The translations under genes and the position numbers were made by a program. Below, piece by piece: positions 1 through 10,809 of a DNA stretch of 10,809 bases. The stretch is taken from the IMG/VR virus record IMGVR_UViG_2648501437_000027. One strand, written 5' to 3'. The stretch comes from a virus (taxonomy: Duplodnaviria > Heunggongvirae > Uroviricota > Caudoviricetes). Below the pieces are notes generated by a model. The model worked only from the letters and a program-made list of their open reading frames with translations, had not been told where the DNA came from and searched no databases. Within the stretch, counting starts at the first letter, position 1; each line of letters opens with the position of its first letter.

Positions 1-141
1 TTACTGCTTACACTGTAAGAACGCCGCAAACTCCGCTCCCCAGAAGCTCATCCGTATTTCGCACAGCGAACCGTGCAGCATCCAGATGATGAGGATTGCC
101 GTCACGCAGAACGTGATGGCCGTAAGCGATTTTTGCGACAT
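1..141 (-). CDS. Hok/Gef-family type I toxin (small membrane peptide), 46 aa
   Basis: Reverse-strand translation from ATG at 141 to TAA at 3-1 gives MSQKSLTAITFCVTAILIIWMLHGSLCEIRMSFWGAEFAAFLQCKQ. It has a single hydrophobic helix followed by SLCEI and a C-terminal AAFLxCK, matching the Hok family pattern as I recall it (e.g. HokA SLCEL...ELAAFLACK). Identity rests on memory, not a search. Confidence 0.6.
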   Translation of the reverse strand: MSQKSLTAITFCVTAILIIWMLHGSLCEIRMSFWGAEFAAFLQCKQ

Positions 142-322
142 AGCACTTGCTCCTTTTCCGGAGAGGCGCTAACCTTTCACTTGTCAAGGTAATGCGGTTA
201 GGGCCTCGGTTAAACAGAGATGTTTTCCGGGGCCTTTCCACATCTGGCCTTCGGGTATTCCCTTCGACCATCAGCCGAAAGGCACCCGCGCGTAATCTAT
301 CGCTTTTTTGTTGCTCCGGCAA
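8..322 (-). CDS. mok-like overlapping reading frame (translational coupling frame of the hok locus); true start uncertain (ORF opens with TTG at 322, first ATG at 271)
   Basis: A 104-codon frame overlaps the whole hok CDS in a different frame and stops at 10-8, seven nt from the hok stop, which is the hok/mok arrangement known from plasmid R1. No sequence similarity was checked. Confidence 0.3.
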   Translation of the reverse strand: MPEQQKSDRLRAGAFRLMVEGNTRRPDVERPRKTSLFNRGPNRITLTSERLAPLRKRSKCYVAKIAYGHHVLRDGNPHHLDAARFAVRNTDELLGSGVCGVLTV

Positions 323-331
323 TTCTGCCTG

Positions 332-592
332 TTAATTCTGAGGTAAAGGCAAACTCATCTGATTGTTTCCCCTGTGTGAAGCTGGCAGCTCATGCCACGG
401 GATACCATCTGAAGAGTGAACGCCGGAGGCGTGTTTCGATGTGAATTTATGGAAAGCTTCCAGTGTTGAGAAGCATACGCCGCATTCCAGGTTGTTACAC
501 TGGTAATACTTTTGCCGCACGGTGTTTGAATCATTTTCCGGACGACTGGTGCGGATACGGGCAGATGCGCCACAAAGCGGACAACGGAACAT
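332..592 (-). CDS. ogr: Ogr/Delta-family zinc-finger late-gene transcriptional activator
   Basis: Translation begins MFRCPLCGASARIRTSR...YYQCNNLECGVCF, i.e. a C-x2-C...C-x4-C zinc finger and N-terminus that strongly resemble P2 Ogr (MFHCPLC...). A strong SD (GGGAGG) sits 5 nt upstream of the ATG at 592 on the minus strand. Confidence 0.85.
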   Translation of the reverse strand: MFRCPLCGASARIRTSRPENDSNTVRQKYYQCNNLECGVCFSTLEAFHKFTSKHASGVHSSDGIPWHELPASHRGNNQMSLPLPQN

Positions 593-793
593 AGGGACCT
601 CCCTTAACGTGGTGCTGGTTCTATTTTAAGTTGTACTGGCTCAGACTCCAACAGCCACTCCGCCTTGAGCAAAAAGTTAGCGCAGGAGTGCATGTTTAAA
701 CCTAATTGCTTTAAATATAGTGATTCGGATAACCAGATGACTTGTGTTTATATATGATAACGGTAAAAATCTACTCTCTATGAGAATGTTGAT
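593..793. promoter_or_regulatory. AT-rich divergent intergenic region between ogr and the orphan gene; presumably carries promoter(s) for one or both
   Basis: About 200 bp of non-coding, AT-rich sequence between divergently oriented genes. No confident -35/-10 assignment could be made by eye. Confidence 0.3.
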
Positions 794-1954
794 GTGAAAA
801 TGGTCACCATGAAGATAACTAAGACAAATTTTGGTATAACTATTAATGATACTTTAATAACGGATTTTCGCGATGTAGTTAATGAAAGAGATTTTGTTTA
901 TAGTTACTTCATAAACAGAAATGGTAAAAATCAGTTCAGCCCTATTTGTTCATGCATGGATTGGATTACTGTTTCTGTACGCTATCTTATGAACATCCCT
1001 GAAATATCTGAAGACATTGATATTAAAGCTATGCAGATTTATACTATTATATCATCAATCGATATAATAGTGGAAGCGGTGCGGCAACTCCATCGTATTA
1101 TTGAAAGTGACAATAATTTTATGAAATGGCCCTTTAAAGGCTCTGTTGATATTTTTAAGGGTAAAATACATTATCTTTCGCATGAGGATGATGACTCTTA
1201 TTTTAAGAGTATTCGCGCTATTTTTGGTGCTCACCCTACGAATCTTAAAAATAACTACGGGGAGAGATTGTTTGCGAGTTGGCCTCATTTTTATGCACTT
1301 AATAATAATGATTTTACTATAAGTCTTTATAATAACAAACCCGGTGTGGATGATGTTATTTTTGGTATTAAATTTAACGAGCTTATCTCATATGTTGAAA
1401 GTAGGTATAAATATCTAGAAAAACTAATGGACTCTATAGTGGTAATTCGTAACAACCATTACGATGTTTTGTCCGCGCAAGTTATATCATCCACCGATAA
1501 CATTTATGATGAGTTGAGGCTGCTTCTTTCAGAAGTCGCTATACGAGGTAATAATGATTATTACCGAATGCAATTGGAAGAGTTAATTCATTTGTTTGAT
1601 GGTTGTGTTAAAGAGAAGCATCTTCAAGATGAAGTAAATGAGTTTTTGAGTAAACTCTATCCGATCGTTTTAGAGATTAGAAATAATCTTCAGAAAATGA
1701 ATATTGAAGATTTAACAACTACTTGTGATGTGATTATTTCGAGGCTTCCTACAGGTGAATTAAATTATATTCTTCAGAAGATGTTTTCTTGTCTCCACTC
1801 AGATAGGGATGATCCATTGAAGGATTATTACTTTGATACTTTAAATAAATATACTGAAGGTTGGTATAATTTTTGCTCTGCAGATAATGATAGTACAACC
1901 TTGCTAAAACTTAGAATGATGCTGTATCGGTATCATCAGCAAAAACTTGATTAA
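794..1954 (+). CDS. Hypothetical protein, 386 aa, AT-rich orphan/cargo gene inserted between D and ogr; candidate anti-phage defence (abortive-infection-like) or other moron; family unknown
   Basis: Long uninterrupted ORF (GTG at 794; in-frame ATGs at 800 and 809 are plausible true starts) ending TAA at 1952-1954. GC content by eye is roughly 30% versus well over 50% in the flanking phage genes. N/I/K/Y/D-rich protein with no signal peptide, TM segment or P-loop seen. One weak R-x5-H match (SIRAIFGAHP). Confidence 0.75.
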   Translation: MKMVTMKITKTNFGITINDTLITDFRDVVNERDFVYSYFINRNGKNQFSPICSCMDWITVSVRYLMNIPEISEDIDIKAMQIYTIISSIDIIVEAVRQLHRIIESDNNFMKWPFKGSVDIFKGKIHYLSHEDDDSYFKSIRAIFGAHPTNLKNNYGERLFASWPHFYALNNNDFTISLYNNKPGVDDVIFGIKFNELISYVESRYKYLEKLMDSIVVIRNNHYDVLSAQVISSTDNIYDELRLLLSEVAIRGNNDYYRMQLEELIHLFDGCVKEKHLQDEVNEFLSKLYPIVLEIRNNLQKMNIEDLTTTCDVIISRLPTGELNYILQKMFSCLHSDRDDPLKDYYFDTLNKYTEGWYNFCSADNDSTTLLKLRMMLYRYHQQKLD

Positions 1955-2030
1955 CGATGAGAAATAATGTCAGCGGATTTTTTATAATCTTGCATATCAA
2001 TTCATCGTTAGGTTTATGATGCCTATTTCG

Positions 2031-2069
2031 GGCACAGAGCAAACAGGTATATTATGTTGGCTCTGTGCT
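2031..2069. repeat. Inverted repeat (9-bp stem GCACAGAGC/GCTCTGTGC, about 19-nt loop) in the convergent gap between the orphan gene and gene D; possible D 3' stem-loop or insertion scar
   Basis: Seen directly: 2032-2040 pairs with 2060-2068. No adjacent U-tract on either strand, so not a canonical intrinsic terminator. Confidence 0.35.
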
Positions 2070-2084
2070 GTATCTTCCCACCAT

Positions 2085-3191
2085 TTAGGTCTGCGCAATC
2101 CATTCAGGGATTTTTGTTTCAAGTTCAAGCTGCGTGGTATAACCGCTGTTATCAATGGTGTGCTCGGCTTTTGCAATAATCCAGTCCTGATTATCAATCT
2201 CGCTTTTAAATCCTGTTACCGTGCCATGCATTTCGGGGTAGAGTTCTGCACGTCCACGCGCCAGCGTGATGGAAAATGATGCGGCTCCGCGTTGTAGTTG
2301 CTGCCACTTTGCCGCCGCTGCGCGTCTTGCTGCCTGCTCGTTCTGATAAGTCTTGCGTAACACAAACACATTGCCTTCCGCGCCTTCCATATAATCACCT
2401 TCACGGCTGCTGCTTTTCTCCTTTTTGGGTTTTGGCGGTTTGCGGCGTTTCACGCTGACTTTTTTCTTTTTCCCGTAATTAAGATCAAGCCAGTAAGCGC
2501 GTACCCCCGTATACGCCTCGCGGTCAGCAATGCGGAACTGATGGCGATCGCCGCTGCTGCGTGTGATGGCGAACGATGGCAACGGCTGGCCCTGTGCGTT
2601 CACGCCACCGCCTGGCATGATGAATAACAGATTGCCGCTTTTTACCGTGGTGATTGCGCCCAGCATTTCCGCCATGCGCGTAAGGAAGGACATGTCGCTT
2701 TCTTCGGTCTGGTCGGCGTGGTCGATTTCGATATCCATCAGCATTTCGCTGATTTGCGGTTTCAGACCATACCGATGAGCGATGGCGGATACCACACGCT
2801 CAACGGTCACATCATGCCAGGACACCTCACGTTTAACGTTAAATTCATCCCGAAAATCTGCGCTTCTGGCCGAAACAGTCAGCCTGTCCGGCGGTCCTTC
2901 GTGAGCGATTTCATCAACAATGTAAGTGCCTTTTTCTGTCAGCGGTTCTCCTTTCCAGCCAATGAGAACCGTCAGGCGCGCGCCCCGTGGCGGTAGCTGC
3001 AACTGACCATCCGCATCATCCAGCGTGATGGTGAGCTGGTCCGCTTCAAATCCCCGGTTGTCGGTCAGTGACAGACTCATCAGGCGCTCTGCCACGCCGG
3101 ACAGCGTTTCCCCCTCCGCGAGAATATCAAAATCCGGCATTTTCACGGGGTCTGTGCTCTGACTGAGCAATTGCATGGTGGTGTCGGTCAT
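2085..3191 (-). CDS. D: P2 gpD-like tail/baseplate hub protein (late control gene D), 368 aa
   Basis: Translation (…LSLTDNRGFEADQLTITLDDADGQLQLPPRGARLTVLIGWKG…) resembles P2 gpD. Start placed at ATG 3191 (MTDTTMQLL…), which has a GGGAGGG SD about 7 nt upstream on the minus strand; the longer ORF to 3323 lacks an RBS. Confidence 0.85.
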   Translation of the reverse strand: MTDTTMQLLSQSTDPVKMPDFDILAEGETLSGVAERLMSLSLTDNRGFEADQLTITLDDADGQLQLPPRGARLTVLIGWKGEPLTEKGTYIVDEIAHEGPPDRLTVSARSADFRDEFNVKREVSWHDVTVERVVSAIAHRYGLKPQISEMLMDIEIDHADQTEESDMSFLTRMAEMLGAITTVKSGNLLFIMPGGGVNAQGQPLPSFAITRSSGDRHQFRIADREAYTGVRAYWLDLNYGKKKKVSVKRRKPPKPKKEKSSSREGDYMEGAEGNVFVLRKTYQNEQAARRAAAAKWQQLQRGAASFSITLARGRAELYPEMHGTVTGFKSEIDNQDWIIAKAEHTIDNSGYTTQLELETKIPEWIAQT

Positions 3192-3348
3192 CTGTTCCCT
3201 CCCTGTGCGGCATGGTCGCATGTGCGTGCGGAGGGGGTTACTGCTTTTTGTTGTCGCCGTGGCGGGAGAACGGCGCAGGGGTGAGATTACGCGCGTGGTG
3301 GGTGATGATTGTTGCCGAATCATTTAACGGATACAAGGGGCTGAAGCT

Positions 3349-4533
3349 ATGAGTGAAACTCGTTTTCATGGTGCCCGTGTTACGGAAAATACCGACCTGG
3401 TAACAGCGATTAATGATGTTGATTCCAGTGTTATCGGTATCGTGGCAACGGCGGATGATGCGGACGCGAAGCTGTTCCCGCTGAACAAGCCCACACTGCT
3501 GACCCGCGTCAATGACGTGCTGGGAAAATGCGGGACAACGGGGACGCTTTATCGTGCGCTTAAGGCCATCGCAGACCAGGTGAGCACAAAGGTGATCGTC
3601 GTTCGCGTGGCTGAACACAAAGAAGAAGGCGGTAAGACGCAGGATCAACTGGTTATCGGTGGTTCTGAATCTGACGGCAGCTATACGGGGATGTATGCGC
3701 TGCTTGTTGCAGAGCAGGATGAAAGCATCGGATACCGTCCGCGTATTCTGGCCGCGCCGGAGCTGGACACGGAGGCGGTGACAAAATCCCTGTGCGTGAT
3801 TGCGGGTAAGCTGCGCGCGTTTGTGTATGCCTCATGTCACGGCTGTAACACGATGGCTGAGGCGATTACCTACCGCCAGAAATTCAACGAACGTGAAGTG
3901 ATGCTCTTATGGCCGGACTTCATCGCCTACAACCCAAAAAGTGGCGAAAACGAAACGTTCCCCGCGCCTGCCTATGCGTGCGGCCTTCGTGCGTACATTG
4001 ACCATGAGCAGGGATGGCACAAATCACTGTCCAACGTTCCGGTCAAAAATGTGCTGGGAATGTCCAGGCATGTGTTCTGGTCGTTGCAGGCCGAAGACAG
4101 TGATGCCAACAGCCTCAATAACAAAGAAATCACGACCATTATTCGTCGCAACGGGTTCCGCTTCTGGGGCAACCGCACACCGGAAACGAACGCCTACATC
4201 TTTGAGGTGTATACCCGAACCGCACAGGTGCTGGCTGATTCAATTGCGGAAGCGCAGTTTGAAACCATCGACAGTCCACTGACGCCTGCGAACGTGAAAG
4301 ATGTTATCAGTGCCATCAGGGCAAAACTGGATTCGCTGGTGACAGCCGGGAAACTGATTGGGGCGTCGTGCTGGTATGACGTGGTGGATAACGGCACCAC
4401 GGATTTACGTCAGGGGCGTGTGCGTATTCGCTACAAATATACGCCCGTTCCGCCACTGGAAGACATGGAGCTTTACCAGACGTTTACTGATGAATACTTT
4501 GGCCCCGCATTTGCGGTGCTGGGAGGTGCCTGA
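3349..4533 (+). CDS. FI: Contractile tail sheath protein (P2 FI-like), 394 aa
   Basis: Length and multiple conserved blocks (FPLNKP, KLRAF, WPDF, EQGWHK-LSNV, RRNGFRFWGNRT, YTRTAQV, YTPVPPLE) match the P2 FI sheath family. RBS upstream of ATG 3349. Confidence 0.9.
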   Translation: MSETRFHGARVTENTDLVTAINDVDSSVIGIVATADDADAKLFPLNKPTLLTRVNDVLGKCGTTGTLYRALKAIADQVSTKVIVVRVAEHKEEGGKTQDQLVIGGSESDGSYTGMYALLVAEQDESIGYRPRILAAPELDTEAVTKSLCVIAGKLRAFVYASCHGCNTMAEAITYRQKFNEREVMLLWPDFIAYNPKSGENETFPAPAYACGLRAYIDHEQGWHKSLSNVPVKNVLGMSRHVFWSLQAEDSDANSLNNKEITTIIRRNGFRFWGNRTPETNAYIFEVYTRTAQVLADSIAEAQFETIDSPLTPANVKDVISAIRAKLDSLVTAGKLIGASCWYDVVDNGTTDLRQGRVRIRYKYTPVPPLEDMELYQTFTDEYFGPAFAVLGGA

Positions 4534-5045
4534 TGGCTGTGCCAAAACATCTTCGCTTTTTTACGCTGTTTGTGGATGGTGAAAACGAAGTGGGTAAGGT
4601 GACGTCCGTCACTCTGCCTAAACTGACGCGCAAAACCGACAGCTACCGGGGTGGTGGCATGATGGGTGCGGTAAGTATTGATCTCGGTCTGGACGACTCC
4701 GCGCTTGATGCGAGCTTTGTCATGGGGGGCGCAGTTCGTGCGCTGTTCCTTAAGTATGGCGGCACGATTGACGGCACGCTGCTGCGTTTTGCGGGTGAAT
4801 ACTACACCGATGCAGAAAGCGACCTGTATGAAGCCGAAATGCGCGGACGTGTGACGGAAATTGATATGGGGGAAGCCAAACAGGGCGAAGCCACATCACA
4901 CACTTACGCTGTCAAAAACACCTACTACAAGCTGAGCGTTAACGATCGCCCGCTGTGGGAAATCGACCTGTTGAACCACATCTACCGGAAGGACGGCAAG
5001 GACATTGTGCCTGACCGTATCCGTTCCGCGCTTGGGCTTGGCTGA
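4533..5045 (+). CDS. FII: Tail tube protein (P2 FII-like), 170 aa
   Basis: ATG overlaps the FI stop (TGATG) and is preceded by GGAGGT. Size and position immediately after the sheath gene are as in P2 FII. Confidence 0.88.
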   Translation: MAVPKHLRFFTLFVDGENEVGKVTSVTLPKLTRKTDSYRGGGMMGAVSIDLGLDDSALDASFVMGGAVRALFLKYGGTIDGTLLRFAGEYYTDAESDLYEAEMRGRVTEIDMGEAKQGEATSHTYAVKNTYYKLSVNDRPLWEIDLLNHIYRKDGKDIVPDRIRSALGLG

Positions 5046-5100
5046 TAAGTAATATGCAGGCGGCGCAGTGCGTCGCCTCTGACTGAAAAGGAGACAACTG

Positions 5101-5475
5101 ATGAAAGACATCGATACTGAAACCCGGAATAACACCGTGGCGGATGATGTGACGGCAGGTGAGGATATGGCTGTCGAACGTGGCGTAAAACTGACCCGAC
5201 CAATTGAGCGTGGTGGCGAAAAAATCACGTATGTGGAGATCACCGGGGCTATTGAGCAGGCTGGATCCCTGCGTGGTCTGTCGCTGTCTGATGTGCTGAA
5301 TCTGAAAGCGGATACCATGTTCACGCTGTTGCCTCGCGTGACCTCGCCACGACTGGATGAAGTGATGATTAAAAAAATGTCGTCACGCGATTTTATTCAG
5401 TTGTGCGCTGTGGCTGTAAATTTTATGAGCGAGCCAGACTCTGGCGCGAAGAGCGTGCAGGAGACGGCAGCGTAA
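5101..5475 (+). CDS. E: Tail assembly chaperone gpE (zero-frame product), 124 aa
   Basis: ORF preceded by AAGGAG, positioned between tube and tape-measure genes, with an overlapping downstream -1 frame exactly as in the P2 E/E' and lambda G/GT paradigm. Confidence 0.8.
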   Translation: MKDIDTETRNNTVADDVTAGEDMAVERGVKLTRPIERGGEKITYVEITGAIEQAGSLRGLSLSDVLNLKADTMFTLLPRVTSPRLDEVMIKKMSSRDFIQLCAVAVNFMSEPDSGAKSVQETAA

Positions 5476-5639
5476 TCACCCTGGTGTGCTTTGAGCACAT
5501 CGAAGATCTGGTGGCGGATATTGCCGCCATTTTTAACTGGTCGCCCGCCGAAATCTTCATGATGACGCCCGGCGAAGTGGTTAGCTGGCGTGAGCGGGCG
5601 GCACTTCGCAGCGGGAATGCAGACAATGAAGACTCTTGA
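5373..5639 (+). CDS. E' extension: -1 frame read after a programmed frameshift in E, giving an E+E' fusion of about 179 aa
   Basis: The -1 frame is closed by TAA at 5370-5372 and open from 5373 to TGA 5637-5639, so any shift must occur within the A7 run at 5371-5377. The E' frame ends 12 nt after the likely T start. Confidence 0.65.
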   Translation, partial: KNVVTRFYSVVRCGCKFYERARLWREERAGDGSVITLVCFEHIEDLVADIAAIFNWSPAEIFMMTPGEVVSWRERAALRSGNADNEDS

Positions 5640-8439
5640 TATCCGGGTCGCTTTCAGCGCCGTTGACAGGCTGACCCGGCCTGCCGAAAACGCCCGCCGC
5701 CTGATGGGGCAGTTTGGTGACTCCATCCAGCGAACGCAGGGGGCGATCAAAAATCTCGAGCGTCAGGCGCGTTCATTTGAGCGCGCCCGTGACGCTGTCA
5801 GTAAAGCGGATGCTGGCATATTGAAAGCGCGACGCCAGCTTAACGCCCTTAATCAGTTACAACACACGGGTACAGTGCTCAGCGAAAAACAACAAAAGCT
5901 GATGCAGCAGTTAAGCACCCGGCTTGAACGCCTGAATGAATCGCGCACACGGGAGATTCAGAAAATGCGGGAGCTTGGCGGAGAGCTGAAACGCCACGGC
6001 ATTTCCCTGACAGGCAGCGATAACACCATTCAACAGGCCATCAGACGCACCGAACAGTACAACAACCAGCTTGAACGCGAACGGCAGGCGCTTGCGCGTG
6101 TAACGCGGGCGCGTGAGCGGTATTCGCGCGCGCAGGAAACCGCGGGAAAACTGAAAACAGGTGGTGCACTGGCAACAGGTGCGGCAGCGGCGGGCGGCTA
6201 TGCTGCCGGGCGTTTTTTGCAGCCCGCGATTGGGTTCGGGAAAGAGATGTCCCGCGTTCAGGCACTGACGCGAATCGACAAAAACAGCCCACAGTTTAAG
6301 GCGCTGCGTGAGCAGGCGTTAAAACTTGGCTCTGAAACGCAGTTCACCGCTGGAGATGCCGCCAGTGGACAGGCATTTCTTGCAATGGCTGGTTTTACTC
6401 CGCAGGCCATTCAGGCTGCGCTTCCCGGCGTGCTGAGCATGGCAACGGCTGGCGGTATGGATCTCGGCGAGACGGCGGATATTGGCTCAAATATCCTGAC
6501 GCAGTTCGGCCTCTCTGCTGACCAGATGGACCGGGTTGGCGACACGCTTACAGCGGCGTTTACCCGTACCAACACTGACCTTCGCGCGCTGGGCGAAACC
6601 ATGAAATATGCAGGTCCGGTGGCGGGTAAGCTGGGAATATCGCTGGAGCAGGCCGCTGCGATGGCGGGCGTGCTGGCGAATATGGGCATCAGAGGGAGTG
6701 ATGCCGGGACGGCAATGCGCGCCAGCCTGGCTCGTCTGGCATCACCGCCAAAGGCGGCAGCAGAGGCGCTGAAAGAGCTGGGTGTGGCTGTCTCTGACGC
6801 GAACGGCAAAATGCGCCCGATGGAGGATGTACTGGCCGACCTTTATAAAGCCACCCGCAAATACGGGGAAGTTGACCGGGTATCGTTCTTTAAGGACATT
6901 GCCGGAGAAGAGGCTTTCACATCGTTTATGGCGCTCGTTGATGCAGCGGGTGACGGCTCCTTACCCAAACTGAGAAAAGAACTTGAAGGCGCGCGCGGTG
7001 AGGCTGAACGCACAGCAAAGGTTATGGCCAACAACCTTGACGGTGATCTGAAATCACTCGGCAGTGCATGGGAAGGGTTGCGCATCCGCATTGCAGATCT
7101 GATTGACGGTCCGCTGCGTTCTGTCACGCAGTGGCTCACGCGGGTGGTATCAAAGGTGACGGCGCTGGCGCAGGCCCATCCGGCACTGACGCGCCAGCTA
7201 CTGATTGCAGGTGGGGCATTGCTGGCGATGACTGCAACGGTCGGCTCGTTGTCGTTGGCTATTGGTGTGCTTGCTGGCCCGCTGGCAAAACTGCGTCTTG
7301 GCTTTTCCCTCCTGACCGGATCAATGAATGCTGTCAGGCTCCTGCCAGCACTATGGGGAATGGTGACGGGTTCCGTTTCGTTACTGGGGGGCGCTATCGG
7401 GGCGCTGTTCAGCCCGGTCGGATTGATTGCTGCTGCGTTTGTGGCTGCGGCGGTTCTCATCTGGAAATACTGGGAACCCATCAAGGCGTTTTATGCAGGG
7501 GTGTTCAGTGGGATTATGGAACGGCTGGCTCCGTTGCGCGAAACCTTTGAACGGTTCGGTCCAGTTTTTGATGTCGTGCGCGATGGGATTATTCAGGTCT
7601 TTAACTGGTTTAAATCGCTGCTGTCACCGATGGAGTCCAGCAAGGAAACGCTGGATAAATGTACCAGTGCTGGCGAGGTATTCGGCAGGGTACTCGGTGG
7701 AGCGATAGAGCTTGTCCTGACGCCAACAAAAGCATTGATGGATTCACTGGCGTGGATACTTGAAAAGCTCGGAGTGCTTCCGGATGAAGCGGAACGGGCG
7801 AGAAAGAAAATAGAGAACGCTTCAAAGGCTCCTGTAATGTGGGAATGGGATCCGGTTCTCAAGAAAATGGTTCAGAAACCATGGACTCCCGGCCCGGCCC
7901 CGTCAGATAAGGTCGACGACAAAAAAGGCGATAAACCCAGAGACAACAAACCGCTCACAGACAACAATACCGGTACGCTACGCAGACTCAGCAAAATTGC
8001 TGATAACACAGGTAAGCTGGTTGATGAGACGAAAAAACGCATTGGCCCCGGCGATATTGTCTTTAAGAACCTGCCCCGCGCACTTGCTGTTCGTGGGGAG
8101 TGGCAGGAGCGGAAGATTGCGCAGGTCAGTAAGCCTGCCCCCGCAATTACTATCACACCCGTGGTTCCGGCTCCGCTGCCTCCGGCGCTGGTCCCTGTTG
8201 TTGCGGCCAGCTCCCGCCCGGTGGCGGAGGCTATACGATCGCCAGTGGCATCAGTTCCTGCAACTTCCCGTAACCGGGAGCCTGTTGCCTCCGGATTTGG
8301 CGGTGAAATTCATGTTCATCTGCATAACGTTGTTACACAGAATCCCCGCGAACTGGCGAAACTGGTTGGCGAAATGGTCAGGGCAGAAATGGAACGGCGC
8401 GCCCGTGCCGGGCGTGGCAGTTTTTACGATAAAGATTGA
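5626..8439 (+). CDS. T: Tail tape measure protein (P2 gpT-like), about 937-949 aa depending on start
   Basis: Very long ORF following E/E', with a coiled-coil-like N-terminal part, a central Ala/Gly-rich region, hydrophobic segments (LLIAGGALLAMTATVGSLSLAIGVLAG) and a Pro/Ala-rich C-terminal region, typical of tape measure proteins. Start ambiguous among GTG 5590, ATG 5617 and ATG 5626. Confidence 0.88.
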   Translation: MKTLDIRVAFSAVDRLTRPAENARRLMGQFGDSIQRTQGAIKNLERQARSFERARDAVSKADAGILKARRQLNALNQLQHTGTVLSEKQQKLMQQLSTRLERLNESRTREIQKMRELGGELKRHGISLTGSDNTIQQAIRRTEQYNNQLERERQALARVTRARERYSRAQETAGKLKTGGALATGAAAAGGYAAGRFLQPAIGFGKEMSRVQALTRIDKNSPQFKALREQALKLGSETQFTAGDAASGQAFLAMAGFTPQAIQAALPGVLSMATAGGMDLGETADIGSNILTQFGLSADQMDRVGDTLTAAFTRTNTDLRALGETMKYAGPVAGKLGISLEQAAAMAGVLANMGIRGSDAGTAMRASLARLASPPKAAAEALKELGVAVSDANGKMRPMEDVLADLYKATRKYGEVDRVSFFKDIAGEEAFTSFMALVDAAGDGSLPKLRKELEGARGEAERTAKVMANNLDGDLKSLGSAWEGLRIRIADLIDGPLRSVTQWLTRVVSKVTALAQAHPALTRQLLIAGGALLAMTATVGSLSLAIGVLAGPLAKLRLGFSLLTGSMNAVRLLPALWGMVTGSVSLLGGAIGALFSPVGLIAAAFVAAAVLIWKYWEPIKAFYAGVFSGIMERLAPLRETFERFGPVFDVVRDGIIQVFNWFKSLLSPMESSKETLDKCTSAGEVFGRVLGGAIELVLTPTKALMDSLAWILEKLGVLPDEAERARKKIENASKAPVMWEWDPVLKKMVQKPWTPGPAPSDKVDDKKGDKPRDNKPLTDNNTGTLRRLSKIADNTGKLVDETKKRIGPGDIVFKNLPRALAVRGEWQERKIAQVSKPAPAITITPVVPAPLPPALVPVVAASSRPVAEAIRSPVASVPATSRNREPVASGFGGEIHVHLHNVVTQNPRELAKLVGEMVRAEMERRARAGRGSFYDKD

Positions 8440-8451
8440 GGAGTCATGGCC

Positions 8452-8940
8452 ATGATGATGATCTATGGCATGTTTGTTTTTGAGCTGCGCACGCTGCCGC
8501 ATCAGCAGTTACAGCAAAACAAAAGCTGGCGGCATGTGAAAAATGAACGCGTTAACCGTTCAGCAAGCTGGCAGTATATCGGCGCAGGTGATGATCGCAT
8601 CGTGCTTTCCGGCGTGCTTTATCCTGAAATTACAGGTGGCGAAGTGTCGCTTTCGTTGCTGACCACGCAGGCATATACAGGACGCCCCTGGCCTCTGATT
8701 GATGGTGTCGGGCAGATTTACGGCATGTATGTACTGACTGAAACGAATACGACCCGTTCCGAGTTTGATCGCTACGGCAAGGCGAAAAAGATAGAGTTTT
8801 CACTGACCCTTGAACGCTGTGATGAGGATTTGCGGGAGCGCCTGCAATCCTCATCGTTCAGCGATATGCTGTCCGGCTTCAAAGATAAGGTCACATCATC
8901 CCTTAACAGCGCGGCCAGCTCCGTTAAAGGGCTGTTCTGA
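8452..8940 (+). CDS. U: Tail protein gpU-like (tail terminator/tail completion), about 162 aa
   Basis: Begins MMMIYGMFVFEL…, resembling the P2 gpU N-terminus as I recall it, and sits directly after T. GAGGAG lies 8 nt upstream of ATG 8452; the earlier ATG at 8446 is too close to the SD. Confidence 0.82.
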   Translation: MMMIYGMFVFELRTLPHQQLQQNKSWRHVKNERVNRSASWQYIGAGDDRIVLSGVLYPEITGGEVSLSLLTTQAYTGRPWPLIDGVGQIYGMYVLTETNTTRSEFDRYGKAKKIEFSLTLERCDEDLRERLQSSSFSDMLSGFKDKVTSSLNSAASSVKGLF

Positions 8941-8951
8941 TTTAACACAAA

Positions 8952-8986
8952 AACCGCTAATGGCCAGATTAGCGGTTATTTTGTTT
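8952..8986. terminator. Bidirectional intrinsic terminator between convergent U and the invertase gene
   Basis: Perfect 10-bp stem AACCGCTAAT (8952-8961) / ATTAGCGGTT (8968-8977) with a 6-nt loop, followed by ATTTTGTTT on the plus strand and by TTTTTGTGTT on the minus strand. The invertase stop codon (8971-8969) lies inside the stem. Confidence 0.65.
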
Positions 8987-9559
8987 ACTCTTCTCAATTG
9001 TTCCACTTGATTCTCCTGCGGGGTGGTAACGATAAATTGTCGATATACCAATGCTGTAAATTATTGCCAGTTGTTTTCTGTCGTGACCGTTTTTAATCAG
9101 CCTTGCTATTTGCTCATGCTGTTCTTTTGTCAGCTTCGGTCGACGTCCGCCTGTGCGCCCCCGTGCGCGCGCTGCCGCCAGTCCGGCCAGTGTACGTTCA
9201 ACAATTAATTCACGTTCCATTTCAGCCAGGGCACCCATCACGTGGAAGAAAAAACGCCCCATTGGAGAAGATGTATCTATGCTGTCGGTCAGACTACGAA
9301 AATTAATCCCTCGCTCCCGTAGTTCCCCGACGAGAGAAATCAGATGTTTCATGCTTCGCCCGAGGCGATCCAGTTTCCAGACAACCAGCGTGTCACCTTG
9401 TTGAAGGCGCTTTAAAGCGCGTTTTAATCCCGGTCGGTCAGTCTTTGTCCCGCTTAATTTATCTTCAAATATTTGTTCACATCCTGCACAAACAAGAGCG
9501 TTTCGTTGCAGGTCTGTATTCTGGTCATTTGTTGATACCCTTACATAGCCAATCAGCAC
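8969..9559 (-). CDS. Serine DNA invertase of the Gin/Cin/Pin/Hin family, about 196 aa
   Basis: Translation LIGYVRVSTNDQNTDLQRNAL…VVWKLDRLGRSMKHL… is near-identical in its N-terminal catalytic region to Mu Gin as I recall it, including the catalytic Ser in VRVSTNDQ. Start placed at GTG 9559 (aligns with the Gin N-terminus MLIGYVRVS), with GGGAGA SD upstream; the ORF-track start at 9583 is also GTG. Confidence 0.9.
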   Translation of the reverse strand: MLIGYVRVSTNDQNTDLQRNALVCAGCEQIFEDKLSGTKTDRPGLKRALKRLQQGDTLVVWKLDRLGRSMKHLISLVGELRERGINFRSLTDSIDTSSPMGRFFFHVMGALAEMERELIVERTLAGLAAARARGRTGGRRPKLTKEQHEQIARLIKNGHDRKQLAIIYSIGISTIYRYHPAGESSGTIEKSKQNNR

Positions 9560-9613
9560 GCTGAATCTCCCGTCCAAAAGCACAAATCATGCCATGCAGG
9601 CCAGAAACCGCCA

Positions 9614-9639
9614 TTATCTAAAACCTCGGTTTACAGGAA
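9614..9639. other. gix/cix/hix-like 26-bp crossover site for the invertase (boundary of an invertible tail-fibre segment)
   Basis: TTATCTAAAACC-TC-GGTTTACAGGAA: two imperfectly inverted 12-bp half-sites with identical inner AAACC/GGTTT around a 2-bp core. As I recall it, it differs from the Mu gix sequence by about one base. It lies 55 bp from the invertase start. Confidence 0.75.
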
Positions 9640-10809
9640 ACGGTAAATCAGGCTTCTGGTGCATTACAGAAAAACCAGAACGGCGCAGATATTCCCGATA
9701 AAAAACTATTCCTGCGTAATATCGGCACAACAAATTCAACAACCATGTCTTTTAGTGGTGGTGCTGGATGGTTCAAACTGGCAACTGTAACAATGCCACA
9801 AGCCAGTTCCGTGGTTTACATAAGCCTGATTGGTGGCGCAGGGTATAACGTTGGCTCCTCGCATCAAGCAGGCATCTCTGAGCTGGTTCTGCGTGCAGGA
9901 AATGGGAATCCAAAAGGCATTACTGGTGCATTATGGCGACGGACATCGGTTGGATTTACTAATTTTGCATGGGTGAATACATCCGGTGATACCTATGATG
10001 TTTATGTTGAAATAGGTAATTACGCCACAGGTGTTAATATTCAGTGGGATTATACCAGTAACGCCAGCGTAACGATTCATACATCACCATCTTATACAGC
10101 GAATAAACCAACAGGTCTGACAGATGGAACTGTATATGTAATTTACAGTTCGCACATTAAACCGACTGCTGCTGAGGTTGGGGCGTTGTCATTATCTGGC
10201 GGTCAATTGAATGGTGCACTGGGCATCGGAACATCCAGTGCTCTTGGCGGTAACTCGATTGTTTTAGGAGATAACGATACCGGGTTTAAACAAGGTGGTG
10301 ATGGGGTGCTGGATGCTTATGCTAATGGTTCGCATGTATTCAGCTTTAGAAGTGGTTCAGCAATATCATTTAAGGGTATTCAGGCTGGGGAAAGTAAGCT
10401 ATTCACTCTTTCAAGTGCAAATAACTCTGCCTGTAATGCATCATTTAACTTGTGGGGAAATTCGTCAAGACCAACTGTTGCAGAGCTTGGTGATGATTCA
10501 GGCTGGCATTTCTATAGTCAGCGAAATACAGATAACTCAGTGATATTTGCTGTAAACGGTCAGATACAACCAAGCAACTGGGGTAACATTGATTCCCGCT
10601 ATGTGAGAGATATCAGACTTGGTTCACAGCAATATTATGGAGTGAACAACTGGCAAACATGGAATTTCCAGTGCCCTTCAGGTCATGTACTGTCTGGTAT
10701 AAATGTTCAGGATACAGGGTCCCACTCTGCCGATAATATAGCTGGCGTTTATTACAGACCTGTTCAAAAGTATATAAATGGCACCTGGTATAATGTAGCG
10801 AGCGTTTAA
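9622..10809 (+). CDS. Tail-fibre variable C-terminal segment (Sv'/H'-like), currently in the silent orientation; no start codon of its own
   Basis: The frame opens immediately after a TAA (9619-9621) inside the gix-like site and runs to TAA at 10807-10809. Gly/Ser/Asn/Thr-rich with a …YYRP…NGTWYNV… C-terminus typical of enterobacterial phage tail-fibre tips. The first ATG (9745) has no RBS, consistent with expression only after fusion to a constant N-terminal part upon inversion. Confidence 0.75.
   Translation, partial: NLGLQETVNQASGALQKNQNGADIPDKKLFLRNIGTTNSTTMSFSGGAGWFKLATVTMPQASSVVYISLIGGAGYNVGSSHQAGISELVLRAGNGNPKGITGALWRRTSVGFTNFAWVNTSGDTYDVYVEIGNYATGVNIQWDYTSNASVTIHTSPSYTANKPTGLTDGTVYVIYSSHIKPTAAEVGALSLSGGQLNGALGIGTSSALGGNSIVLGDNDTGFKQGGDGVLDAYANGSHVFSFRSGSAISFKGIQAGESKLFTLSSANNSACNASFNLWGNSSRPTVAELGDDSGWHFYSQRNTDNSVIFAVNGQIQPSNWGNIDSRYVRDIRLGSQQYYGVNNWQTWNFQCPSGHVLSGINVQDTGSHSADNIAGVYYRPVQKYINGTWYNVASV

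Follow-up and report, generated by a model that had tools for sequence, protein, structure and literature searches.

Invertase-proximal end of a probable Mu G-type tail-fibre inversion switch in a P88-like Escherichia coli prophage, with IS5 in the assembly gene of the silent segment

The prophage arm and its invertase gene

The DNA analysed here (the window, 10,809 nucleotides) represents the right arm of a P2-family prophage of the P88-like (Xuanwuvirus) type, inserted beside ihfA in E. coli. It corresponds to positions 257-11065 of locus L070 and originates from contig JHSO01000007.1 of assembly GCA_001266005.1. The P2-type tail genes follow the P88 order and include Pfam matches to GpU and GPD, and the DNA is 94-97% identical to P88 over positions 1-632, 2094-7811 and 7926-9695. 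The gene order is common to the window, phage P88 and E. coli TUM14668. In both P88 and TUM14668, the region beyond the fibre segment contains a tfa gene, followed on the minus strand by another tfa gene, a full tail-fibre gene H and baseplate genes. A secondary inversion of the FI-U tail operon relative to D was considered and rejected, as the arrangement is the standard gene order of P88 and of all relatives. The features from the left end of the window up to the crossover site are as follows.

1-141, minus strand: hok, prophage right arm
332-592, minus strand: ogr, prophage right arm
800-1954, plus strand: cargo ORF, prophage right arm
2085-3191, minus strand: gpD, prophage right arm
3349-8940, plus strand: sheath, tube, E/E', tape measure and gpU genes, prophage right arm
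8952-8977, no strand assigned: bidirectional terminator-like hairpin between the convergent gpU and invertase genes (10-pair stem, T-runs on both strands)
8969-9559, minus strand: serine DNA invertase gene of the Gin/Cin/Pin/Hin family, 196 aa, GTG start (Pfam, PDB and comparison with Mu)
9200-9559, minus strand: 5' 360 nt of the invertase gene, the expected place of a Fis-dependent recombinational enhancer (DNA identity to Mu gin and analogy)
9560-9613, minus strand: leader or upstream region of the invertase gene, 54 nt (read from the sequence, conserved with Mu)
within 9560-9613, minus strand: ribosome-binding site GGGAG, 7 nt before the invertase GTG
9618-9613, minus strand: GATAAT, a putative -10-like hexamer overlapping the outer half of the crossover site

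The cargo ORF encodes a protein of 384 aa and is low in GC (31-33%). No family match was found for it in Pfam, PADLOC or PHROGs, and its AlphaFold model, although confident (pLDDT 93.6), had no relative among solved structures. Its homologues form 109 clusters in Gammaproteobacteria and Campylobacterota and occupy variable slots of other mobile elements, for instance beside traN in an SXT-like ICE. This gene is the least understood thing in the window and may deserve more attention.

The invertase protein matches the Pfam families Resolvase (2e-50) and HTH_7 (3.5e-13) and the PDB Gin entries 4m6f and 3uj3 (about 1e-100). Ser9 is present, at the position that corresponds to S9A of 3uj3, and residue 114 is the wild-type Met and not the Val of the Fis-independent M114V form; the roles of Gin S9 and M114V are described in PMC3575834. 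An earlier note made from the sequence alone had placed the gene in the Gin/Pin family and credited it with the catalytic serine, and both statements hold. The protein has the small serine recombinase layout of the Gin/Cin/Pin/Hin (Din) systems, with an N-terminal catalytic domain that carries the nucleophilic Ser and a C-terminal helix-turn-helix. The GTG start codon is the same as that of Mu gin. Identity to Mu Gin is very uneven, with 129 of 135 N-terminal residues identical versus 29 of 62 in the C-terminal helix-turn-helix part. The same break is seen in the DNA, which is 94-100% identical to Mu gin over nucleotides 1-360 (232/240 in the first 240) and about 55% identical beyond. The gene thus reads as a mosaic, in which a Gin-type catalytic half is joined to a diverged DNA-binding half. 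Since the C-terminal domain shares just 29/62 residues with Gin, we infer site recognition from the co-occurrence of gene and site and from natural inversions (see below). In Mu, the Fis-dependent enhancer lies within the 5' part of gin, and by analogy the conserved 5' 360 nt would carry the enhancer here. A consensus promoter scan found no promoter for the invertase gene. The identical invertase protein is listed in 152 blocks of a public collection.

The crossover site and the silent tail-fibre segment

Upstream of the invertase gene, and diverging from it, lie the following elements.

9589-9621, plus strand: ten-codon mini-ORF MPCRPETAII in the fibre frame, from ATG 9589, closed by TAA 9619-9621
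9614-9639, plus strand: gix-type crossover site TTATCTAAAACCTCGGTTTACAGGAA, 26 bp, the invertase-proximal (gixR-equivalent) copy (match to Mu gixR), consisting of an outer half (9614-9625), a 2-bp core TC (9626-9627) and an inner half (9628-9639)
9640-9695, plus strand: 56-bp inner extension of the inverted repeat, encoding the start common to both variable segments (TVNQASGALQKNQNGADIP)
9622-10809, plus strand: silent variable tail-fibre C-terminal segment (Sv'-equivalent), 395 codons (PHROG matches, homologues and the fusion protein P0001)

The site is identical to Mu gixR at 25 of 26 bases. The 26-mer occurs once in the window, and by chance no occurrence would be expected, even with up to 3 mismatches allowed. 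As in the sites of Din systems, two imperfectly symmetric 12-bp halves surround a 2-bp core and the whole adjoins the invertase gene. The gix-like site had been correctly located in the earlier note; its distance from the invertase start codon is 54 nt and not 55 bp as given there. Forty invertase-proximal sites were surveyed, and in all of them (40/40) the invertase gene, the site and the segment are linked. A sequence identical to TTATCTAAAACCTCGGTTTACAGGAA adjoins the invertase gene in 24 of the 40.

The single base that differs from Mu within the site changes the CAA of Mu into TAA. All 39 non-Mu sites of the survey have TAA at this place (TTATCTAAAACC or TTATTTAAAACC) and CAA was seen in Mu only, whereas the copies of the site within fibre genes carry TTATCGAATACC or TTATCGAATATC in their outer half. 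The earlier note had drawn attention to this stop codon embedded in the crossover site. The stop is real, but it carries no mechanistic weight. Exchange never involves the outer half-site in which it lies; in either orientation the stop is found next to the invertase gene, so that it closes only the short upstream ORF. In Mu, the frame that matches the mini-ORF has CAA at this place and continues without a stop into S', and a CDS was called there by GeneMark. The TAA marks the opening of the fibre frame and is a family-wide feature with no special mechanism; its conservation may reflect shared ancestry or a weak selection against translation of the parked segment.

The fibre frame is open from 9622, immediately after TAA 9619-9621, to TAA 10807-10809, which gives the 395 codons at the coordinates that had been proposed. 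It matches tail-fibre PHROGs (up to 5e-88) and, over its full length, shares 98% identity with the C-terminal region of E. coli tail-fibre proteins. No Shine-Dalgarno sequence was detected before the first in-frame ATG/GTG/TTG codon (9745) and a consensus scan detected no sigma-70-like site upstream on the plus strand, in agreement with the earlier description of a fibre segment devoid of promoter and ribosome-binding site. The first 24 codons are the inverted-repeat copy common to the partner segment. The same Sv' is found in protein P0001 (L069), fused in frame to the constant part (...AAVIEY followed by LGLQETVNQASGALQKNQNGADIPDKKLFLRN..., LGLQETVNQ). As in Mu G and P1 C, promoterless alternative fibre C-termini are therefore fused in frame to a constant part across the site, and the 354-aa "gene" starting at 9745 is better labelled as an invertible fibre gene's silent half.

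An exact 40-mer search with the last 40 bases of the window gave no match in a genome contig collection holding one genome per species, and 55 loci in viral contigs. In most of these 55 loci the stretch shared with the window is confined to the final ~230 nt of the fibre gene, which form a mosaic module, and only L015 and L023 match the whole fibre segment.

The order of invertase, gix-type site and promoterless fibre segment is that of the Mu G, P1 C and e14 P segments, as had been recognized beforehand. We conclude with high confidence that a tail-fibre inversion switch of the Mu-G type has its invertase-proximal end in this region, and that it is carried by a P88-like (Xuanwuvirus, Peduoviridae) prophage adjoining E. 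coli ihfA.

The second site and the IS5 junction

No second, inverted copy of the site is present in the window, and 135 nt beyond it the source contig stops inside an IS5 element. The visible sequence of this genome therefore reaches neither a second site nor the partner segment nor the constant part. A second site would be expected to be of the TTATCGAATACCTCGGTTTACAGGAA type. In relatives (L001, L002, L015 and L059-L068), a second site is found in inverted orientation 2.9-3.2 kb away, inside the minus-strand gene H, with the same TC core and a different outer half (TTATCGAATACC, read I-E-Y). The earlier note had predicted the second site, the partner segment and the constant part to the right and on the minus strand, and all relatives examined have them there. 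In L015, which is 98.5% identical to window positions 8348-10809, the order is Sc-site-Sv-tfa-tfa'-Sv'-site-invertase, and the site together with the 56-bp extension forms an 82-bp inverted repeat with 3 mismatches. No third site, as expected for shufflon-like multiple inversion, was detected in the window, L015 or L069 with up to 8 mismatches allowed.

The sequence past the window shows what happened to the silent segment in this genome. The tail-fibre assembly gene tfa starts 2 nt past the window (VMHLKNIKAGNAK) and runs for 39 nt (13 codons), after which the IS5 end begins at CTAA; the last 96 nt of the contig are 100% identical to an IS5 end. The junction lies 40 nt beyond the window, in the assembly gene that serves the silent segment. 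The tfa gene that follows the fibre segment is intact in L015 and L069. Each variable segment would normally have its own intact tfa/U gene, and here tfa is split after codon 13; its remainder is expected past the other IS5 end and CTAA (...ACACC(A/G)GAGCAGTATGAG...). The earlier description of the switch as intact and functional consequently fails for this genome. With IS5 in tfa the silent cassette is crippled and this fibre state would probably not assemble. While the recombination parts in the window are intact, the switch has been damaged as a host-range device in this genome. The contig break is best read as an IS5 insertion inside the invertible segment, and one fibre state is probably defective in this strain.

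The IS5 end could also mark a deletion or rearrangement mediated by the element instead of a simple insertion. The switch would then be a fossil, reduced to an orphan invertase, a single site and a fibre fragment fixed in the silent state. The end of the contig in IS5 only 135 nt beyond the window fits this explanation, as does the abundance of the element, which occurs in about 1500 complete E. coli genomes, with up to 28 copies in each, and may promote rearrangements. Moreover, the close relative L023, with one mismatch to window positions 7250-10249, carries an independent IS1A about 25 nt further into the same tfa gene than IS5, indicating that the cassette does decay. However, the IS5 end directly adjoins CTAA, the kind of target typical of IS5, in an otherwise colinear tfa, as expected of a simple insertion. 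Draft contigs break at any IS5 copy, whether rearranged or not, and the tail genes, the invertase gene and the crossover site inside the window are all intact. We therefore regard the fossil explanation as unlikely, although it deserves to be kept in mind, and retain the reading of a switch with IS5 inserted in the assembly gene of its silent side.

A further proposal combines the stop codon with the insertions. The TAA would be a selected insulator that keeps the silent cassette untranslated in both orientations, and the silent chaperone gene would be a recurrent IS target. This proposal seems improbable to us. If it were true, the mini-ORF (9589-9621) would, without its TAA, read into whichever fibre segment is parked silent, and recurrent insertions in the silent chaperone gene could leave one host-range state of lysogens locked or disabled.

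Inversion in related prophages and comparison with known systems

Both orientations of the segment occur in nature with an identical invertase, in relatives of this genome. Ten E. coli prophage loci that encode the exact invertase protein of the window and have flanks 99.9-100% identical were compared. The 2929-bp segment between the cores has one orientation in 6 of them and is exactly flipped in the other 4. In the pair L059 and L063, the invertase is identical, the 3-kb flanks are 100% identical and so is the 2929-bp segment once it is flipped.

The sister strain GCA_001911555.1, from which protein P0001 comes, is 99.5% identical to window positions 1-9695 and has the same ihfA site, the same cargo gene and an identical invertase. 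On one of its contigs, the invertase-side outer half-site is joined to the partner segment SvA. A second contig contains Sc-SvA and terminates in a 548-nt copy of Sc fused to an Sv' of the window type. In each recombinant junction, the outer half from one parent is combined with the segment-specific base 47 of the repeat from the other, which is what reciprocal exchange at the core predicts. These reciprocal junctions are good evidence, at the level of a draft assembly and not of reads, that both coexisted in the sequenced culture.

Gin-family invertases complement each other. The enzyme might thus act mainly in trans on other segments of the host, of the e14 or Mu type, with the adjacent site being incidental; complementation within the family is noted in PMC4272514, and up to 10 matches to this region are found in E. 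coli genomes. We consider this very unlikely as a replacement for local inversion, since the adjacent segment itself is seen flipped and the linkage of invertase gene, site and segment is strict in the 40 sites surveyed; action in trans would be an addition to adjacent inversion and not an alternative to it. That the fibre ORF is a free-standing gene of 354 aa from ATG 9745, as gene callers predict and as the CDS annotated by GeneMark for a similar Mu ORF might suggest, is hardly credible, because position 9745 lacks a Shine-Dalgarno sequence and a plus-strand promoter-like site, the frame is open for 41 codons further upstream, exactly up to the site, its first 24 codons belong to the inverted repeat and the same segment occurs fused in frame to the constant part.

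In an inversion switch of the proposed type, dimers of the Gin-like invertase would bind two inverted 26-bp sites, the one at 9614-9639 and another about 3 kb to the right within the minus-strand tail-fibre gene H. By analogy with Mu, P1 and Hin, Fis would bind at an enhancer in the 5' part of the invertase gene itself, both sites would be cut at the 2-bp core (9626-9627), and the ends would be rotated and religated so that the segment is inverted. The constant N-terminal fibre part would thereby be fused in frame (...IEY joined to LGLQE...) to either of two C-terminal receptor-binding parts, each alternative having its own assembly chaperone gene behind it. The presumed outcome, on the same analogy, would be a switch of host range. 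The window shows the switch in the state in which this segment is on the silent side.

Prophage fibre genes in draft assemblies can thus be chimeras of two orientations, and both fibre states with their chaperones need to be considered jointly in the prediction or engineering of the host range of P88-like phages. Beyond correct annotation, the present case matters little. The system is of a known kind in a well-sampled prophage family, and both this kind of system and this invertase are already in databases.

Among the known systems, P1 Cin/C, e14 Pin/P and Fels-2 have one invertase family and the logic of alternative fibre C-termini in common with the region described here, the Cin and Fels-2 enzymes being 74% identical to the window invertase. 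They differ in being more distant in sequence and in having other phage backbones and other fibre modules. The P2-like prophages of EPEC E2348/69 are likewise E. coli prophages with invertible tail-fibre loci, and phase variation of their fibre segments by Hin-like invertases has been demonstrated experimentally (Goldberg et al. 2014, PMC4272514). Three repeats with four variants are present in one of these prophages, as against two sites only in the relatives of the window.

The P88/Xuanwuvirus prophages share the order hok, D(-), FI-FII-E-E'-T-U(+), invertase(-), Sv'(+), tfa'(+), tfa(-), H(-). Their invertase is 96-97% identical to that of the window, the invertase-proximal site is identical and the second site is 3.07 kb away. 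In the corresponding records a DNA invertase, a pair of fibre segments and a pair of tfa genes are annotated, and the words inversion and invertase are absent from the P88 paper (PMC5285337). In contrast to the window, P88 carries a different Sv' allele, its match ending at 9695. The window has the additional cargo gene between ogr and D, and its source genome has IS5 in tfa'.

The G segment of Mu with its invertase Gin closely resembles the region in its DNA: from the site through the leader and the GTG start codon to nucleotide 180 of the gene, the sequence is nearly that of Mu gixR-gin, in addition to the nearly identical catalytic domain and the high identity over the first 360 nt. The site has the same TC/GA core as gixR, the silent Sv' diverges from the invertase gene across the site as in Mu G, and the partner segment in relatives has a start like that of Mu S'. 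The differences concern the host element, which is a P2-family prophage here and a transposable phage in Mu, and the diverged DNA-binding domain of the enzyme. The repeats of Mu are perfect beyond the 26-bp site. The outer halves here differ from each other (TTATCTAAAACC versus TTATCGAATACC), whereas both Mu sites found read TTATCCAAAACC, with CAA in place of the TAA of the window. Finally, the Sv' of the window encodes a different and longer fibre tip than that of Mu.

Junctions of both orientations and the outer half-site

The single draft assembly GCA_001911555.1, from a sister strain with an identical invertase, contains junctions for both orientations of the fibre segment (L069 1-548 and L075 18814-19548, two loci of that assembly), including both reciprocal recombinant ones. 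Its 553-amino-acid "phage tail protein" P0001, which carries the window-type segment, is an ORF truncated at a contig end because the assembly holds junctions of both orientations.

Next to the invertase gene, the outer half-site carries TAA in all surveyed loci except Mu, which has CAA, and the fibre-gene copy of the site encodes I-E-Y in every surveyed locus. Within window 9613-9621, the hexamer GATAAT (minus strand, 9618-9613) extends into this half-site and could be the -10 element of the invertase promoter.

IS insertions and mosaicism

The tail-fibre assembly (tfa) gene that follows the silent fibre segment was found interrupted by two different IS elements, IS5 in the source contig L070 and IS1A in the near-identical prophage L023.

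L070 11066-11200 (1-135 nt past the window end): IS5 insertion in the tfa gene
L023 1-124 (beyond the window end): IS1A insertion in the same tfa gene
Window 10582-10809: shared mosaic module of ~230 nt at the end of the fibre segment (...YYRPVQKYINGTWYNVASV)

IS5 enters the gene at CTAA, after codon 13, and the draft contig L070 stops within this element; the IS1A insertion of L023 is an independent event, located approximately 25 nt deeper in tfa. The two insertions may reflect a hotspot, the decay of an unexpressed cassette, or a bias arising from contigs that end at IS elements.

Differences between the window and L023 cluster at 6250-7000, in the tape-measure gene, and at 10250-10750, in the distal fibre segment, with almost none between the two clusters; these clusters are recombination patches. 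Also within the tape-measure gene, window 7812-7925 gave no megablast alignment to phage P88 or to E. coli TUM14668. An exact 40-mer from window 10582-10809 was found in 55 viral contigs, the rest of whose fibre genes are unrelated, and this stretch is a mosaic module common to many fibre genes.

The cargo ORF between ogr and gpD

Window 800-1954, plus strand: cargo ORF of 384 amino acids, occupying the ogr-gpD slot

The GC content of this ORF is 31-33%, compared to ~55% in its flanks, and in relatives the slot is either empty or filled differently. No match to the protein was found in Pfam, PADLOC or PHROGs. It has homologues in 109 clusters, in which MDW, D88, D131, R139-x5-H145 (GAHP), ASWP, R249, E292 and Q298 are invariant. 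Its AlphaFold model is confident (pLDDT 93.6), and no related fold was found among solved structures. Distant homologues adjoin traN in an SXT-like ICE and lie close to a Card1 nuclease. Speculatively, the product could act as a single-gene defence or abortive-infection protein.

Prophage end and gene order

Window 1-141, minus strand: hok/mok-type toxin gene, at the prophage end
Window 332-592, minus strand: Ogr/Delta zinc-finger activator gene, at the prophage end

The host genes thrS-infC-rpmI-rplT-pheST-ihfA lie directly upstream of the prophage (L074 1-9000, a locus that includes the host flank), and both ends of the window fall at gene ends. The tail operon FI-FII-E-E'-T-U (window 2085-8940, with gpD) is convergent with the invertase gene and divergent from gpD, whereas P2 itself has the colinear order FI...U D. 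A local rearrangement of the operon relative to gpD was rejected, as the same arrangement is standard in P88-like phages.
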